Notes under the pieces: model-generated
Told to the model about the DNA's origin: nothing
Database searches by the model: none
Seen by the model: the letters and a program-made list of their open reading frames with translations, nothing else
Position numbers and translations under genes: made by a program
Shown: piece by piece, positions 47,202 through 57,929 of the stretch
Numbering within the stretch: position 1 is the first letter of the stretch
How the letters are laid out: the number at the start of each line of letters is the position of its first letter
NCBI GenBank assembly: GCA_964577565.1
Contig: CAZNZL010000001.1
Location: 14,566 to 78,565, forward strand
Length of the DNA: 64,000 nt
Reading direction: 5' to 3'
Source of the DNA: an uncultured Candidatus Saccharibacteria bacterium
GTDB taxonomy: Bacteria > Patescibacteriota > Saccharimonadia > Saccharimonadales > JAGQNJ01

Positions 47202-48065
47202 TTAAACCAGGCGCCAGTGGTTATTGCCGAGTGGTTGTATCACGGCGTTAATTTCTAAGATAGTTAGTGTTTGGTTAAAGATTTGTGGTTCAAGCTGGCT
47301 CTCAGCAAGCAATACAGAACCATCAGTTATGCCTTGCTTTAGTAAGGTAATAAGTGCCTGTTCCTCTGCGCTATAAGCTTGTACAGTCGCTTGCTGTTTG
47401 GTATCTATACCAAGTAGATCGAGCACGTCTTTTGTGGCGGTTAATGGCAATGCTCCTGCTTTTATAAGATTGTTTGTGCCTTTGCTGAGCGGGCTGGTAA
47501 TTGGCCCTGGCACTGCCATGACCGTTTTACCTTGGTTTAAGGCAAATGATGCGGTATGGATGGTGCCGCTATTCTCTGCTGCCTCAGTTATGATGACAAT
47601 ATCACCCAAAGCTGAGACGAGACGATTTCGAGCAATAAAATTTTGCCGCAGCGGCGGTGTGCCTTCATCGAACTCGGTTAGGAGTGCGCCGCCCGTATCA
47701 ATGATTTGTTTTGCAAGACCTCGGTGAGTTGCCGGATAAACCATTTCTGGACCGCAAGGTAATACTGCGATTGTTTGGCCGTCTGCCTCAATGCAGGCTT
47801 GGTGGGCAACGCTATCGATGCCGAGCGCCAAACCGCTTATAATGACACCGCCTGACCGGGCAATTTCAGTGGCTAATTTTTGGGTCACTGCTCGACCGTA
47901 AGGTGTTGGCTTGCGGCTTCCAACAATACTTACAGTGGGCTTAAAAAGCAGTTCACGGGGGTTACTACCCCTGTAGAAAATTTGTCTTGGCGGTGCATCA
48001 ATAACGCGCAAACGTTCTGGTATCTGCTGACCTACGAGCTTATGCTTAGTATAATTATTTTGCAT
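47202..48065 (-). CDS. dprA: DNA processing protein DprA (Smf)
   Basis: VSIVGSRKPTPYG and SGLALGIDSVAHQACI are present. It lies adjacent to topA, a frequent synteny. Confidence 0.9.
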   Translation of the reverse strand: MQNNYTKHKLVGQQIPERLRVIDAPPRQIFYRGSNPRELLFKPTVSIVGSRKPTPYGRAVTQKLATEIARSGGVIISGLALGIDSVAHQACIEADGQTIAVLPCGPEMVYPATHRGLAKQIIDTGGALLTEFDEGTPPLRQNFIARNRLVSALGDIVIITEAAENSGTIHTASFALNQGKTVMAVPGPITSPLSKGTNNLIKAGALPLTATKDVLDLLGIDTKQQATVQAYSAEEQALITLLKQGITDGSVLLAESQLEPQIFNQTLTILEINAVIQPLGNNHWRLV

Positions 48066-48088: not shown

Positions 48089-48117
48089 ATTGACATAATG
48101 TAACATATTTGCTAAAA
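48089..48117 (+). promoter_or_regulatory. consensus sigma-70 promoter (TTGACA, 17 nt spacer, TAAAAT, with TGC before the -10) driving the ORF-free structured region
   Basis: The sequence reads TTGACAtaatgtaacatatttgcTAAAAT. The predicted transcription start is near 48124. Confidence 0.6.
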
Positions 48118-48123
48118 TAGCAA

Positions 48124-48570
48124 CCCGTAAGTCCTTGTTAGGATTTTACGTACCTTATACCCCCATTCTAACATCCGTATTTACGGATATCGTTAGATTG
48201 TTTTAGAGCGCGCTTATTCGAGTTGTTACCCTCCACTTGGTGAGCATAAGCCGGCCTAGCCGGTAACGCTCTAAAACAGACTAACCCCTTTAACTCCCCC
48301 ACAAAAAGGCAACTTTTTGCGGGGGCCCCTGTTAATCAGGGTTCCCAATCAATGGTGAATATCAAGTATGGCTCATAGAGCCGGCGCAAGTCTTTATGGA
48401 GTTTTGGACATTGACGCTTCACCGGGGTGGGTTGAAGGGTGTATTGGTTCCCCATAAATCAAAAGCTAACGCTGAGATTTATGGGGACCCCTAGTTTTAA
48501 GGCTTGAGCGTGTGTTTGAGCCCTGAAATCGGCTTACAGCGGTGCCCACCCCCTCTGTAGGCCGTTTTTT
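48124..48570 (+). ncRNA. candidate structured ncRNA of unknown class (about 450 nt)
   Basis: A promoter lies upstream and an intrinsic terminator at the 3' end. No ORF of 60 aa or more exists in any frame. Seven local helices include two perfect 11-bp stems (48199-48209/48266-48276 and 48449-48459/48475-48485) and a 13-position stem capped by a GCAA tetraloop (48295-48324). There are many G-runs and C-runs with long-range complementarity. Confidence 0.5.
48530..48570 (+). terminator. rho-independent terminator closing the candidate ncRNA
   Basis: GGCTTACAG at 48530-48538 pairs with CTGTAGGCC at 48554-48562 (9 bp including one G-T pair). A GTTTTTTG tract follows. Confidence 0.6.
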
Positions 48571-48696
48571 GTGCCCAACCACTTTCAGTGGTCTCAGCTC
48601 TTCGTATATGGCAACAAGTTTCCATCAGAAGATGCCCTTGCAGACAGTCACCGACTGTCTTCACCCTCTAGAGGCTCTTTTAGTAGAATGATAGTT

Positions 48697-49272
48697 ATGA
48701 AAATCACTGAACAATACGAATTTACAGAACTTACACCTGAAGCAGTAGATTGCTGTGTTGAACATGGAGCAGCGAATCTTTCTGGCTTTCTTTCAGAAGC
48801 CACGCTTAGATATATCAAAGAAAGAGGTTTTCCTGTTCGGCAAGAGGTTGCAGAGACGGTTGATGCAAAACTAACTAAATTAATGAGGGTTTTCGGTATC
48901 GGCGGCTTACCTAAGGTCAGTATAGAGCAAGCCTCGCTTGTGCAAATGGCAATTGAAACTATTCCGAGCTTCGATGATCCCGCACGTCTAGACTTTCATA
49001 CTGATAGTATTCAGCGCAACGGTGTATCCTTTTTGATACCTATAAGTGGCAGTTCAGCTCGGTTTGAATTTAGGGATATAGGTGAATACGAGCCAGAGGC
49101 TGTAACCTACATGCCAGGCGACATATTGTTACTGAGGCAATATATTGAAACCTATAACGGCAGGATCATTAGACGACCTCAAATAGAACATCGCGGTATA
49201 GCACCCAGCCCGCGAAGCATCTATACTGTAGACCTACACGATAAGCATTTGGTTACTGACTTTACAGTATAA
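48697..49272 (+). CDS. hypothetical protein, possible HxD...H (cupin/2OG-oxygenase-like) fold
   Basis: DFHTDS, then about 75 aa, then IEHRG. I prefer the ATG at 48697 (MKITEQYEF) because TAGAAT at 48684-48689 lies 7 nt upstream. The longer ORF from the GTG at 48571 would start inside the terminator. Confidence 0.45.
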   Translation: MKITEQYEFTELTPEAVDCCVEHGAANLSGFLSEATLRYIKERGFPVRQEVAETVDAKLTKLMRVFGIGGLPKVSIEQASLVQMAIETIPSFDDPARLDFHTDSIQRNGVSFLIPISGSSARFEFRDIGEYEPEAVTYMPGDILLLRQYIETYNGRIIRRPQIEHRGIAPSPRSIYTVDLHDKHLVTDFTV

Positions 49273-49920: not shown

Positions 49921-50523
49921 TTATTTTGTTGGCGCGGTAGGTGCGGAAGAAGGTTGTATTGATGCATGTGCAACGTAGACCCGAGATGATTGCTGGGTAG
50001 TCCATACAGCGAGACTTGTTACATGAAGCCCTCCCCGAGAAACATAATATGGTCGACCACAGATTGTTTGGTAAGTCTTGCCGCTTCCATTCAGGGATTG
50101 ATTTCTATATCCATCTCGGGCTGTTCCTGTTGTAACACCAAGGGTAAATTTACTCGTTGAACTAACTCCCCTTGCCTTTACACAGATGCGAAAATAGCCA
50201 CCACCATCCATGACAACCTCCTTATCTCTACTTACTGATCCACCGGGTTCAATCGCGATAACGTTTTTGTTAGCTTTGTCAGTGTCAGCAGTATTGTCTA
50301 TAACAATGGAGGATCCGGTGCTAATTCTAGCATTACTAGCATTTAATATATGATAGGTAGTAGCGGCAAAACTCCTATACGTAAACCAACCACCACCCAT
50401 GACTGCTACAAGCAATATGACGGCAATAAAGCGGTTTCTTGATGAATTTAGGTTAATTTTGCCGAAAAGACTTATTTTATTCGCACTGCTGGTGCGTTTA
50501 GTTGATTTGGTCGTTTTTGCCAT
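49921..50523 (-). CDS. hypothetical membrane-anchored secreted protein (paralog 1)
   Basis: The basic N-terminus plus TM helix (RFIAVILLVAVMGGGWFTYRSFAAT) is nearly identical to that of the next gene. The ectodomain is divergent and beta-rich. Confidence 0.5.
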   Translation of the reverse strand: MAKTTKSTKRTSSANKISLFGKINLNSSRNRFIAVILLVAVMGGGWFTYRSFAATTYHILNASNARISTGSSIVIDNTADTDKANKNVIAIEPGGSVSRDKEVVMDGGGYFRICVKARGVSSTSKFTLGVTTGTARDGYRNQSLNGSGKTYQTICGRPYYVSRGGLHVTSLAVWTTQQSSRVYVAHASIQPSSAPTAPTK

Positions 50524-50558: not shown

Positions 50559-51155
50559 CTATTTGACTGGTGTAGATGGAGCGGGTTTGCTATCTGTTTT
50601 AACAAAAATTTTTGCTACGTAGACATTGACACTAGTTGGGTTGCTTACAGAAAGAACGCCACCTGTTAATGCCGAACCGAATGGTCCTTGATTGTCACCA
50701 CATACATCAGTCCAACCCGTAGTTGCTTTAATATCCCATACTCCACCTCTATTTGTGAAGCCAATACCTGCGTTAATCGTAACGGCTTTATCTGCGCGTA
50801 CGGTGGCACAGTACTGTAGGGTCGCATTTCCTGGAATCGTAAGACTTTTTGTATAAGCCTCACCGCCTTTAGCTAGCCTATACATCGGCATGTTATTTTT
50901 ATTCGAATCTGTGGCATTAAATGCATTAACTCCTAATGTTTTGGCGTTCAAACAGTTGGAAGGTGTACATTGAACGTATATATTTGTAGGTGTTGCGGCA
51001 AAACTCCTATAGGTAAACCACCCACCACCCATGACTGCTACAAGCAATATTGCTGCGACGAAGCGCGTCTTTGGGGAGCTTAAATTGATTTTACTGAAAA
51101 TGCCTTTTCTCTTCGCACTAGTCGTACGTTTAGTTGTTTTGCTGGTTTTTGCCAT
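50559..51155 (-). CDS. hypothetical membrane-anchored secreted protein (paralog 2)
   Basis: It shares MAKT.K.TKRT.SA... and LLVAVMGGGWFTYRSFAAT with 49921-50523. The C-terminal end is similar (VYVA...P.S.P..P.K). Confidence 0.5.
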   Translation of the reverse strand: MAKTSKTTKRTTSAKRKGIFSKINLSSPKTRFVAAILLVAVMGGGWFTYRSFAATPTNIYVQCTPSNCLNAKTLGVNAFNATDSNKNNMPMYRLAKGGEAYTKSLTIPGNATLQYCATVRADKAVTINAGIGFTNRGGVWDIKATTGWTDVCGDNQGPFGSALTGGVLSVSNPTSVNVYVAKIFVKTDSKPAPSTPVK

Positions 51156-54833: not shown

Positions 54834-56132
54834 TTACGAAGATGTAGGCGGGGTTGTTTGGGGGTTGTTTGGCGGCTGTTGTGGGGTTGCCGGCGCGCTG
54901 GCTTGTTGCGGTGTAGGCACAGCTGAAATTTCTTGGCCTGGATTAGCTTGCGTGCCATTTGTCGTAGTTGAAACAGTAGGATTTTGGGTAATAAACTCTT
55001 CAATTTGAGCCTGTAGAGCCGCTTCTTCTTCTGCTGTGGTTGAGGTTTCTGGCATTGAGCTGTTGGGCGCGGTCATGTTTACGGGCTGCTGATTGGGGTC
55101 AGGCGTGAACTTGTCTGGTTGTTGGGGAGCAATAACTGGTGTTTGCGGGGTGGAGGGATCGGGTGAAGTGGCAGGCGGGCTGCCTGCTGGTGTTGATTGA
55201 GTTGGCTGAGCAACGTTAGGCGGGGTGGCTGGCATGGTAACGCCTTCTGGTGTAATGACCGAGTTTGCGGCCGGTTGTGGCGCAGGAACCGCTGCCTTCT
55301 CTTCTTCTAAAAGTTCGTTAATGTTAGGCCCATTGGTAATAACATCTGATATTGGTTGAATGACTTTCTTGCGCCCACTAATTGACGGGTCTATGTACGC
55401 CTCTGATCCGGCTGCCACGGCAGCAGCATTATTCTTAACAATAATTTGCTCGCCGGCTGGTTTGTCTTCAGGCAAGGCTGCCGTTGCTGGGTCGTTACTA
55501 GCCGTGCTTGGAGGGGTCGTAACCATTGTTGATGGTGGTTCAGTGGCCGATTGCGCTGCCCCTGCTGGCGGCGTGGGGTCGGGTGCAGGTTGCGCTGCCG
55601 GTTGTGGTGGCACGGGAGCGGGTTGCACTATTTGCGGGGTGGTTGTTGGCGAGTTCGCAATCGGTACCGCTTGCGTGTTGTTGGTTAGCGAGGTAGCGGT
55701 TGGAGGGGTGACTGAAGGCGTCACGGGGTGTTCAACAGGAATACCGCCGACACTTGATGGGTTTTGGTCGCCAAGCATTTGCTGGGCAGCCTTCACCACA
55801 TCTTCTAGGGTGACTTGTGATTTAACAAGATATAAATCTGCCCCCAATTGCTCTGCTTTGGCTTTATCTTCAGCTTGGTTCAAGGCTGTCATCATAATAA
55901 TTTTGGCATTTTTGGTTTCGGTGGTGCTGCGCAGAATATCAAGCATGTCAAAGCCGCTTACTTTGGGCATCATTATGTCCGAGATTATCAGATCTGGCTT
56001 TTCTTTAATGGCAAGCGCCAGGGCAGCTTCACCATCTGCTGCCGAAATAATTTCATAACCCTCAGCAGCCAACCTAGCCTCGTATATCTCACGAAGATTA
56101 TTGTCGTCCTCGACCAGCATTACTTTTGCCAT
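54834..56132 (-). CDS. response regulator receiver domain fused to a low-complexity tail of about 300 aa rich in Pro/Thr/Ala/Gln
   Basis: The receiver motifs are intact (VEDDN, DLIISDIMMP, MTA, YLVKS). The remaining part is P/T/A/Q-rich with no recognisable output domain. It lies immediately downstream of the histidine kinase. Confidence 0.8.
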   Translation of the reverse strand: MAKVMLVEDDNNLREIYEARLAAEGYEIISAADGEAALALAIKEKPDLIISDIMMPKVSGFDMLDILRSTTETKNAKIIMMTALNQAEDKAKAEQLGADLYLVKSQVTLEDVVKAAQQMLGDQNPSSVGGIPVEHPVTPSVTPPTATSLTNNTQAVPIANSPTTTPQIVQPAPVPPQPAAQPAPDPTPPAGAAQSATEPPSTMVTTPPSTASNDPATAALPEDKPAGEQIIVKNNAAAVAAGSEAYIDPSISGRKKVIQPISDVITNGPNINELLEEEKAAVPAPQPAANSVITPEGVTMPATPPNVAQPTQSTPAGSPPATSPDPSTPQTPVIAPQQPDKFTPDPNQQPVNMTAPNSSMPETSTTAEEEAALQAQIEEFITQNPTVSTTTNGTQANPGQEISAVPTPQQASAPATPQQPPNNPQTTPPTSS

Positions 56133-56183: not shown

Positions 56184-57929
56184 CTAGTTTTTAGCTACAT
56201 TATTTGCTTGTGCTTGCTGCGCCTGCAGTGCCTGTACTTGACTAGTGTTTAGGCGCGGTAAATTAACGTAAAAGGTGCTTCCCTGGCCTACTTTGCTTTC
56301 AACCCATATGCGGCCATGATAAAGATCAAGTATTTTCTTGCATAAAAATAAACCAAGTCCTGTACCGCCCGTGGTTCGGGTAGCCGAACTATCAACTCGA
56401 TAAAACTTCTGAAACAAGTGCGGAATATCGTCTTGTGAAATGCCTATACCGGTATCACGTATAAAGAACTGAACCACGTTATTATCGCCGGTAAGACCTA
56501 CCGTGACTTTTCCGTGATTAGTATATTTAATTGCGTTGGTTAGTAAGTTAACAAAAATTTCTCTGATTCTGTCGGGATCAACATGGGCATAATATAGCGG
56601 TTTAATTGATTTCAGGGCGTTATGTTGGGTGTTTTGATTGTCGGCTGAGGCAGTTATGAATTCTAAGGCCAGGTCTTTCTTTTGGGCTGACAAGCGATAG
56701 GTTTCAACTTGCTGCTCGATAAGTTCGCCAATTTCAACGATTTGTGGGTTGCTTTTTAAGCGGCCATCCTCTGCTTTAGAGCTCATGAGTAGGTCTTGAA
56801 AAAGCCGTCCAAGATGCTGGGTGCTGGCGTGCGCCTTCTGAAGAAACCCCTTGGCTCGTTCGTCAATGGTACTCACCCGTTCATTAAGCGCTAGGCCCAA
56901 GTAACCTTCAATGGCGGCAATTGGGGTACGCATTTCGTGCGACGCGGTGCTTATGAACTCGCTTTTTTCTTGCTCTTCTTGTTTCTTTTTGCTGACATCG
57001 CGCATGATTATTACGGCACCATAGGGTTCATCTGGAGATGCCTGCTCAGCAATGACAGAAACAGACACATCAACATATATCGGCGGTTTGTTATTAATTG
57101 CCAAGATAAGTTCTTTGCTGACAGATTGTTTTTGCTGGAGGGCTATGGCAATGGGTTCTTCTTCAAGCGGGAGCTCGGCATTGTCGAGTTGCTTAAACTT
57201 CAAAACACTGCGGTAGTTTAGGTCAAGTACGTCTTTTTCAGTTGCGTTGAGTAACTTGAGGGCCGGCGGATTAATCGACCGCACAATTTGCTTGCTGTCT
57301 ATAATAACAACACCGTCACCAATGCTGTCAGTAAGCAGCCGTACCACTTCGTTTTTTACAAAATAATGCTCAATATAATTTTGCTTTGCAGGCGCCGCCG
57401 TATGGTACCTGTCTTTAAATAAGATAATTAGTAGTATTACCCCTAAGACACGGACCATCATAACAATTGCATCACCAGTAAGGCCAAGCTGGGTTGCTTC
57501 AAGCGTGCCGGCAACCGACATTGCAAATATAGCACCGATAAGACCAATAATTACCATGGCCAAAAATGGCCCCAGTGTAGTCGCCATGAAAGCAATGATA
57601 ATATTGTGGATCAAAAATACAATCGAACTGCTGTGTTCAAGTGATGCCTCTGAGGCCGCGTTACATGTTAACGCAAAACAAACAAAGGTTATGCAGTACG
57701 CCAGCCATATACTGGTTTTTCTTACGAGCCTAAAAAATAATAAAAAATAAATAAGGCCAATTAATGCAAAGGTAATGGTTGCGCTACTAAGGCCAAAAAA
57801 TTCTTGGCCTGTGACAATTATACGGTGTTGTTTAATTGCAAAGTACGCATATATAGCAACAAAAGCCACCATAATAACTACGTAGTAATAGTTAAGTAGT
57901 TTTAGCCATTTTTCATTAATATATTGCAT
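56184..57929 (-). CDS. membrane sensor histidine kinase (TM region, PAS-like segment, HisKA, HATPase_c)
   Basis: H-box (FISTASHEMRTPIAAIEGY), N-box (NLLTNAIKYT), G1 (IRDTGIGI) and G2 (GGTGLGLFLCK) are present, with five or six N-terminal TM helices. Confidence 0.9.
   Translation of the reverse strand: MQYINEKWLKLLNYYYVVIMVAFVAIYAYFAIKQHRIIVTGQEFFGLSSATITFALIGLIYFLLFFRLVRKTSIWLAYCITFVCFALTCNAASEASLEHSSSIVFLIHNIIIAFMATTLGPFLAMVIIGLIGAIFAMSVAGTLEATQLGLTGDAIVMMVRVLGVILLIILFKDRYHTAAPAKQNYIEHYFVKNEVVRLLTDSIGDGVVIIDSKQIVRSINPPALKLLNATEKDVLDLNYRSVLKFKQLDNAELPLEEEPIAIALQQKQSVSKELILAINNKPPIYVDVSVSVIAEQASPDEPYGAVIIMRDVSKKKQEEQEKSEFISTASHEMRTPIAAIEGYLGLALNERVSTIDERAKGFLQKAHASTQHLGRLFQDLLMSSKAEDGRLKSNPQIVEIGELIEQQVETYRLSAQKKDLALEFITASADNQNTQHNALKSIKPLYYAHVDPDRIREIFVNLLTNAIKYTNHGKVTVGLTGDNNVVQFFIRDTGIGISQDDIPHLFQKFYRVDSSATRTTGGTGLGLFLCKKILDLYHGRIWVESKVGQGSTFYVNLPRLNTSQVQALQAQQAQANNVAKN

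Follow-up and report, generated by a model that had tools for sequence, protein, structure and literature searches.

A conserved, densely structured non-coding RNA gene in Saccharibacteria

In a 64,000-nt stretch from an uncultured Candidatus Saccharibacteria bacterium (contig CAZNZL010000001.1 of assembly GCA_964577565.1; the whole stretch is hereafter the window), we describe what is very probably a genuine new non-coding RNA (ncRNA) gene, located on the plus strand between dprA on the minus strand and an open reading frame (ORF) of 194 aa on the plus strand. The RNA represents a family that Rfam 15 does not contain and that has no detectable relative; as a family it is therefore new. Our favoured reading, which we hold with moderate confidence, is that of an independently transcribed, multi-domain structured ncRNA family, conserved in Saccharibacteria (Saccharimonadales) and acting in trans as a folded particle. 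The hosts are ultra-small epibiotic bacteria of the candidate phyla radiation (CPR); their genomes, of about 1 Mb, contain very little non-coding sequence, and only very few ncRNAs have been described from them. An initial annotation, made from the letters of the window, had placed here, between dprA and a small hypothetical gene, a discrete and densely structured non-coding RNA running from promoter to terminator, and this is borne out both in its location and in its nature, since the signals are conserved, the covariation is strong and the G·U pairs establish which strand is read. The features described there are all present, although every coordinate was 1 too low; for example, GTTTTAGAGCG lies at 48200-48210 and not at 48199-48209. 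The element has its own promoter and terminator, compensatory changes in its helices, a G·U asymmetry and no conserved ORF, which are the generic marks of an independent structured ncRNA gene.

The RNA is conserved in relatives of the window's organism, which the relatives of its DprA assign to Candidatus Saccharibacteria, order Saccharimonadales. An nhmmer search with the window sequence against loci fetched through DprA found it upstream of dprA, on the opposite strand, in all the Saccharibacteria loci fetched in this way, including 13/13 of the loci retrieved by DprA only, whose DprA proteins are 45-78% identical to that of the window; it is absent from one proteobacterial dprA locus. A pattern made from two conserved blocks then retrieved at least 120 metagenome contigs, each with one copy of the RNA, and the copy counts given below rest on these matches listed. 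Among them are 109 copies that are full-length and distinct, with lengths of about 290-560 nt and a median of about 390, and a length-filtered subset of 75 copies forms 70 clusters below 90% identity. As a control for ascertainment, six further loci were picked by DprA alone (45-51% identical to the window protein), and the RNA is present in 6/6 of them, scoring 62-168 bits with the models. Throughout the DprA-anchored loci the conserved blocks have 0-1 mismatches, barring three cells with 3 mismatches (L009, L132 and L134), the 3'-truncated L001 and L003, and the divergent L136.

The transcription unit in this genome consists of the following parts.

48124-48570, plus strand: the whole RNA gene, about 447 nt.
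48090-48118, plus strand: sigma-70 promoter, with -35 box TTGACA at 48090-95, a 17-nt spacer and an extended -10 element TGcTAAAAT, its hexamer at 48113-18.
48530-48570, plus strand: 3' hairpin and intrinsic terminator, a 10-bp stem of 48530-39 with 48555-64 and a U tract at 48565-70.
48540-54, plus strand: loop of the 3' hairpin, 15 nt, CGGUGCCCACCCCCU.

The promoter, which had been annotated as near-consensus, indeed carries 11 of the 12 consensus positions together with the upstream TG, and its position predicts a start at about 48124-48126. It is also kept in relatives: TTGACA occurs in 106 of 114 distinct upstream regions, the 17-nt spacer in 107, the TG of the extended -10 element in 110 and TAAAAT or TAGAAT in 91. 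The annotated intrinsic terminator is equally well founded, as its stem is 99% paired with 10/10 pairs changed on both sides, and a U tract directly follows the terminal hairpin in 101/109 copies; a simple terminator scan missed it because the loop has 15 nt and the scan allows at most 8 nt. With respect to coding capacity, the plus strand contains no ORF of at least 30 aa except one of 32 aa in a non-conserved segment, and no consistent ORF is found across the 109 copies, in which the longest ORF on either strand varies from 26 to 119 aa; a small protein product is ruled out by this lack of consistency. The modelled helices contain 671 G·U cells and 94 A·C cells (about 7:1), and it follows from this excess that the RNA is read from the plus strand.

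The structural evidence comes from folding and from covariation. The minimum free energy (MFE) of the plus strand is -185.7 kcal/mol compared with -130.8 ± 6.5 kcal/mol for dinucleotide shuffles (z = -8.5, with 0/100 shuffles as stable), and the minus strand gives z = -6.6; the MFE fold of this single sequence already recovers nearly all the helices later backed by covariation. The 5' half and the 3' half were each given a covariance model (R1 and R2, respectively), built from MAFFT alignments with hand-checked structures, and all copies were realigned to these models; the E-values of the models are rough, their calibration having been short. Covariation in relatives, which the initial annotation had named as a check on its proposal, is found, with compensatory changes in 57 of 84 modelled pairs, distributed as follows.

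5' half: 33 pairs; 94.1% of cells paired, 35-48% with partners slid; 19 pairs changed on both sides; 0/500 shuffles as high.
3' half: 46 nested and 5 pseudoknot pairs; 94.9% of cells paired, 34-53% with partners slid; 38 pairs changed on both sides; 0/500 shuffles as high.

An unsupervised mutual-information scan over all column pairs ranks the modelled pairs at the top, and finds no strong pairs or pseudoknots beyond the nested model. Beside these changing helices about 60 nucleotides are near-invariant, spread over five blocks. These results show that the helices are selected for pairing and the loops and junctions for sequence, in an RNA that is single-copy, independently transcribed and non-coding.

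The 5' half is made up of the following elements, all on the plus strand.

48127-35 with 48141-49: H1, the 5' hairpin, with base GUnAA/UUnAC and a variable tip.
48150-48166: conserved single strand G(C/U)ACCUUAUACCCCCA, near-invariant in alignment A1 and in the DprA-anchored loci.
48166-72 with 48192-97: H2, UUCUAAC with GUUAGA, with an optional hairpin inserted in its loop at 48174-88.
48192-48285: the 5' domain, in which H3 (48200-10 with 48267-77), extensible by 48192-96/48281-85, closes a three-way junction.
48220-23 with 48235-38: H3a hairpin, with an 11-nt loop UGUUACCCUCC at 48224-34 that includes CCUCC.
48250-48264: H3b, the variable third arm of the three-way junction, present in the MFE fold.
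48278-48295: conserved A-N-ACUAAC junction, then the 5' strand of H4, CCCUUUAACU (48286-95).

In H1, 7/8 modelled pairs have changed on both sides. The conserved single strand following it has no pairing partner by covariation in the mutual-information scan. H2 gives no covariation because its sequence is invariant, and hairpin insertions, variable and covarying, always fall within its loop, this genome having one of them. Its GUUAG at 48192-96 can pair either with the upstream CUAAC, as in H2, or with the downstream CUAAC at 48281-85 as an extension of H3; RNAalifold chose the latter, L012 lacks the upstream CUAAC strand, and covariation does not decide between the two since all three strands are invariant. 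The perfect 11-bp helix of the initial annotation is H3, formed by GTTTTAGAGCG and its exact complement at 48267-48277, and these are the sole exact copies in the 64-kb window. The H3 helix in the model has 19 pairs, of which 10 have changed on both sides (95.8% paired). The H3a loop has 0 mismatches in 13/14 DprA-anchored loci and 2 in L136, while its invariance among the at least 120 pattern-fetched loci is by construction. At the site of H3b, relatives have hairpins of unrelated sequence and length.

The central region and the rest of the 3' half follow, again on the plus strand.

48286-95 with 48430-39: H4, a long-range helix of CCCUUUAAC with GUUGAAGGG, 98.4% paired.
48296-48341: two lineage-specific hairpins, a GCAA-loop stem and CCCCUGUUAAUCAGGG.
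48354-48423: central four-way junction, with J (48354-58/48419-23), a (48359-69), b (48370-82) and c (48383-92/48407-18).
48424-48439: G-rich strand GGGGUGGG (48424-31) and the 3' strand of H4, GGUUGAAGGG (48430-39).
48450-86 and about 48494-48529: two optional hairpins, which the shortest copies lack and in whose place other copies have unrelated ones.

At one position of H4, 84 copies have a C-G pair and 16 a G-C pair, and no copy breaks it. All 23 of the 23 modelled pairs of the central junction have changed on both sides and are also top mutual-information pairs, and this domain is the least constrained part of the RNA, with another arrangement in about 11 copies and complete loss in L136. 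The site 48296-48341 holds zero, one or two hairpins of unrelated sequence in relatives. The G run is kept in 104/108 copies, and the 3' loop CGGUGCCCACCCCCU is invariant in alignments A3 and A4, its core UGCCCACCC being kept in L136. Seven helices had been proposed initially. The family features among them are H1, H2, the 11-bp H3, hairpin b (48370-82) and the terminator, whereas those at 48296-48341 and 48450-48486 are lineage-specific or optional hairpins whose sites are variable in relatives; H4 (48286-95/48430-39), J (48354-58/48419-23) and hairpin c (48383-92/48407-18) had been overlooked.

One member of the family is minimal and divergent.

L136:2152-2453, minus strand of the locus: a copy of about 300 nt with no four-way junction.

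Its H3 is wholly different in sequence (GCAUGCAACG/CGUUGCGUGC), and the single-stranded blocks are kept, the H3a loop being UUCUACCCUCC and the 3' loop GAUGCCCACCCUU. This copy shows that the family reaches past what a scan with an exact pattern retrieves.

A further contact may form within the 3' half. The G run GGGGTGGG at 48424-48431 is complementary to CCCACCCC at 48545-48552 in the terminator loop, and the initial annotation had proposed either a pseudoknot or an anti-terminator-like alternative from this match. The complementarity is present and compatible in 104/108 copies; covariation is absent, because the loop never changes, and the pseudoknot is plausible at this stage. The duplex energies of the G-rich strand with any of the four C-rich elements are -13.5 to -21.8 kcal/mol, and since it can pair with any of them, thermodynamics alone does not choose among them. 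Two other conceivable contacts are a pairing of the 5' GYACC with GGUGC of the loop and a kissing dimer through GGUG..CACC of the loop. The anti-terminator alternative finds no support. A mutually exclusive terminator and anti-terminator would need the stem to be blocked, and here the G run matches the loop, so stem formation would proceed; besides, there is no conserved downstream gene to regulate. T-box and ydaO leaders are alike in being structured RNAs that end in an intrinsic terminator with an upstream segment complementary to the terminator hairpin, but in the new RNA the complement is the loop and not the stem, and no conserved gene lies downstream on the same strand.

What kind of RNA these features describe can be put as follows. 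A strong sigma-70 promoter would drive a plus-strand transcript of about 447 nt, for which the 3' hairpin and U tract of the gene itself are the predicted end. The 5' part folds into the 5' hairpin, a C-rich single strand and a three-way junction presenting the invariant CCUCC loop, and the 3' part into a long-range helix around a variable, usually four-way, domain, followed by the G-rich strand and the 3' hairpin with its C-rich loop. The helices would position four near-invariant C-rich single strands and one G-rich strand as contact surfaces, which a protein or a second RNA may bind or which may take part in tertiary contacts, for instance the G-run/loop pseudoknot. The RNA would then work in trans as a stable folded particle, either as the subunit or scaffold of a ribonucleoprotein (RNP) or as an RNA machine itself. 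The trans-acting folded particle is favoured because the helices are swappable, the sub-domains are optional, the near-invariant nucleotides form five blocks and the whole pattern resembles a scaffold or machine: invariant loops and junctions stand beside freely changing helices, H3 is fully replaced in L136, and the same combination of swapped helices, optional sub-domains and invariant single strands is seen in RNase P, OLE and raiA. Regarding the mode of action taken by itself, the balance leans slightly towards a scaffold or machine rather than a base-pairing regulator.

Several points weigh against this reading. The start of transcription, the 3' end and the abundance are predicted from sequence signals. 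The pattern-fetched set is biased, in that the invariance of the two pattern blocks is by construction and divergent members such as L136 are under-sampled, and the percentages of paired cells are somewhat inflated by the fitting of alignments A2 and A4 to the models. The invariant elements do not covary, so that the tertiary contacts proposed for them are putative; in the 4/108 copies without the G run the invariant loop is kept and the G-run/loop pairing is lost, therefore this pairing cannot alone explain the conservation of the loop. In addition, the C-rich single strands, including the CCUCC loop, suit a base-pairing regulator equally well, and the data here point to no partner or reaction.

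The strongest competitor is accordingly worded around these strands. The RNA might be a trans-acting base-pairing regulator or sponge whose C-rich strands bind G-rich targets, for instance Shine-Dalgarno sequences, in the manner of RsaE and RoxS, with the H3a loop UGUUACCCUCC (holding the anti-Shine-Dalgarno core CCUCC), the 5' strand ACCUUAUACCCCC and the 3' loop GCCCACCCCC as candidates. Such a role would agree with the four near-invariant unpaired C-rich elements, with the own promoter and terminator, and with the lack of a tie to one downstream gene. With RsaE and RoxS, small RNAs (sRNAs) of Firmicutes, the new RNA shares unpaired C-rich motifs able to pair with G-rich sequences of Shine-Dalgarno type, one motif having CCUCC, as well as an own promoter and a Rho-independent terminator. 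However, those sRNAs are about 100 nt long with two or three simple hairpins, and the new RNA has 3-5 times that size and contains two junction domains; its size of about 290-560 nt, its two multi-helix junctions and its about 60 near-invariant nucleotides are far beyond known seed-type sRNAs. Moreover, the C-rich elements differ from each other, unlike those of sponges, which repeat one motif, and apart from the gene itself the 64-kb window holds no extended complementary site, though this is very little sequence to search. We regard this alternative as unlikely.

A ribozyme of a new class would be less probable still. Large conserved bacterial RNAs of unknown function have often been argued to be ribozymes or RNPs, and the size, the invariant junction nucleotides and the pseudoknot potential could be those of a catalytic RNA, with which the conservation pattern and the multi-domain architecture would fit. 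Nevertheless, there is no hint of a cleavage site or of a substrate, none of the known ribozyme families matches, and the RNA is single-copy in conserved synteny, unlike most self-cleaving ribozymes.

The genomic surroundings bear on the next alternative, that the element works in cis.

47202-48065, minus strand: dprA, Pfam DNA_processg_A, E = 3e-66.
48688-49272, plus strand: 194-aa ORF, no Pfam match.

These two are flanked by topA at one end and by pth and der at the opposite end. Being a cis element could mean a leader or attenuator of the downstream gene, a leader of dprA-topA on the minus strand, or a divergent promoter tuning topA supercoiling, and it is suggested by the position of the RNA, which in most loci is the direct neighbour of the dprA-topA operon, the divergent promoters lying about 25 nt away from where dprA starts, and by its terminator, which in the window precedes the small gene at 48688. 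Each of these forms meets an obstacle. The downstream neighbour is usually a convergent pth (55/66 loci with enough sequence), and the window's 194-aa gene is found in 3 of them, so a leader of that rare gene is rejected, no conserved same-strand gene being downstream. With G·U exceeding A·C by 7:1, the minus strand is excluded; a promoter effect alone would not conserve 79 nested base pairs; dprA, which adjoins the RNA in 71/87 loci, is missing in 16/87; and in L130 other genes stand in place of both dprA and topA. A role in cis is consequently very unlikely.

In most of the 16 loci missing dprA, topA is adjacent, and in 12 loci (L010, L015, L068, L071, L072, L078, L088, L091, L097, L106, L119 and L123) the RNA is directly beside topA; it follows from these 12 that DprA has been lost repeatedly while the RNA was retained. 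A functional tie to dprA is rejected on these absences and on L130, where dprA is replaced by mobile-element genes. L130:1-8444 (IMGVR_UViG_3300049064_000004) is the sole match in a viral-contig collection and has the RNA intact; upstream, in place of dprA and topA, are genes for a D12 N6-adenine methyltransferase, a C5 cytosine methyltransferase, an FtsK/SpoIIIE protein that has a PD-(D/E)XK nuclease domain, and a protein resembling RecT. The contig has the look of a host region in which a mobile element or prophage has been inserted beside the RNA gene. A phage collection gave no match to the RNA.

The idea which survives least, and which we find hardly credible, is that of an extremely diverged housekeeping RNA, namely RNase P RNA, transfer-messenger RNA (tmRNA), 6S or the RNA of the signal recognition particle (SRP): the size and strong promoter suit RNase P or tmRNA, and in the window GUAAGUCC and GGCUUAC could pair as a P4-like helix with a bulged U, but the models of all these RNAs fail on 13 copies and the P4-like strings are not conserved. 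That the RNA fits no known class, and that the full signatures of RNase P and ydaO are absent, had both been noted initially and both hold. At the Rfam 15 gathering score the window gives tRNA alone and nothing on the element; at E<=10 there is scattered junk on 801 nt around the window copy and no recurring family in 12 homologous loci. In particular, RF00010, RF00011, tmRNA, 6S and SRP models have no match at E<=10 in the window copy and the 12 homologues. The weakest listed Rfam matches have about 15 bits, so any RNase P score lies below that; some RNase P RNAs of CPR bacteria do fall below the Rfam thresholds, and a 5-bit threshold was used to find some of them (Lui et al., PMC8172020).

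The resemblance to RNase P RNA was followed string by string. The string GGGGUGGGUUGAAGGGUG is loosely like GGGUGAAAGGGUG, which we take to be a string of E. coli RNase P. P4 itself pairs CR-I GAGGAAAGUCC with CR-V ACAGAAnnCGGCUUA, and here the look-alike strings vary freely and pair locally: GUAAGUCC sits in H1 and GGCUUAC in the terminator stem, each covarying with its local partner, and at their positions L008 has GUAAUCAUC and UGGCCUGU and L009 has CUACGCUCC and GAGCCUAC. In summary, the new RNA is like RNase P RNA (RF00010/RF00011, with the diverged CPR forms in PMC8172020) in its size, its strong and constitutive-looking promoter, its long-range helices, its possible pseudoknots and the short look-alike strings of the window copy, and differs in having no P4, CR-I or CR-V and no covariance-model match in any of the 13 copies.

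Other classes were tried and rejected likewise. ARAGORN finds only a tRNA-Glu in the window and no tmRNA, and the T-arm motif GGUUCGAnUCC is not found within the RNA; tmRNA is rejected for lack of a tRNA-like T arm, of a CCA end and of any Rfam or ARAGORN match. For 6S and SRP there is no Rfam match, and the fold, with its three-way and four-way junctions, is not a 6S-type rod. OLE, ROOL, GOLLD, HEARO, raiA and T-box have no Rfam match at E<=10 in the 13 copies. The c-di-AMP riboswitch (ydaO-yuaA, RF00379) has no match, and the strings that recall it, GGGGACCC and AGCUAAC, fall within the optional hairpin 48450-86; most copies lack this hairpin or have an unrelated one. The minus-strand loop GGGUGGGCACCGC resembles what is presumably a T-box sequence; it has an extra base, is on the wrong strand by the G·U count and comes with no model match. 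Finally, a CRISPR repeat or tracrRNA was considered from GUUUUAGAGC, whose only copies are the two arms of H3 with no array and whose helix differs in sequence in L136; the likeness to a Cas9 repeat is coincidental. A literature search found, among the papers it covered, no report of an RNA motif associated with Saccharibacteria, TM7 or dprA. A search for rnpB, ssrA and ffs in about 346 kb of Saccharibacteria sequence gave tRNAs and one LOOT RNA only, a sample that is uninformative on this matter. That LOOT RNA (RF03000, 53.6 bits with a gathering score of 46.4) is at L017:10868-10985, about 9 kb from the new RNA.

Some further observations concern neighbouring genes. The 194-aa gene is downstream of the RNA in few relatives (e.g. 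L002 and L072); in the window the mechanical ORF (48571-49272) starts at a GTG in the terminator U tract, and the ATG at 48688 or 48697 is a likelier start. A small gene of the TrmB family with a helix-turn-helix (HTH) is found between the RNA and dprA at L131:2136-2438, and just past dprA at L134:3349-3672. Further along the window, on the minus strand, two paralogues lie next to each other, an ORF of 200 aa at 49921-50523 and one of 198 aa at 50559-51155. They have a common N-terminus MAKT.K.TKRT...FIAVILLVAVMGGGWFTYRSFAAT that is signal- or anchor-like; a gene for a probable surface or secreted protein has here been duplicated in tandem. At 54834-56132 (minus strand) is a 432-aa protein with a start like that of a response-regulator receiver domain; its tail, of about 300 aa, is Pro-, Thr-, Gln- and Ala-rich, and the gene adjoins a histidine kinase-like ORF of 581 aa (56184-57929).

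Among known RNAs the closest company is that of OLE, the raiA motif (ModT), ROOL and GOLLD. Like them, the new RNA is a stand-alone gene of several hundred nucleotides with multiple junctions and strong covariation, with invariant blocks in loops and junctions and with optional sub-domains; it is known from one lineage, and its neighbours do not reveal the function. It differs from them in that their Rfam models do not match, in its host, here Saccharibacteria of the CPR, and in that its conserved elements are C-rich single strands. OLE has the protein genes oapA/B/C, and none is evident beside the new RNA, nor is there any phage association. To our knowledge, only about a dozen classes of large (>300 nt) and intricately folded bacterial RNAs are known, and nearly all of those that have been solved are a ribozyme, the core of an RNP or an unusual RNA assembly. 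It is possible, though we put it forward tentatively, that the present family is a new class of large functional RNA in the core gene set of Saccharimonadales, being a ribozyme, an RNP subunit or a self-assembling particle, whose active or contact surfaces would be the invariant C-rich loops and the strand rich in G.

Annotators should take this locus neither for an empty one nor for a diverged RNase P. The study provides a testable new gene of the CPR, together with two covariance models and a structure able to seed an Rfam family. What gives this gene its weight for the biology of Saccharibacteria is that an RNA of about 400 nt has been kept at one chromosomal site in every DprA-anchored locus studied, with a near-perfect promoter and with a sequence invariance in its loops like that of rRNA; from its retention, its promoter and its invariant loops, it is likely to be important for these organisms.

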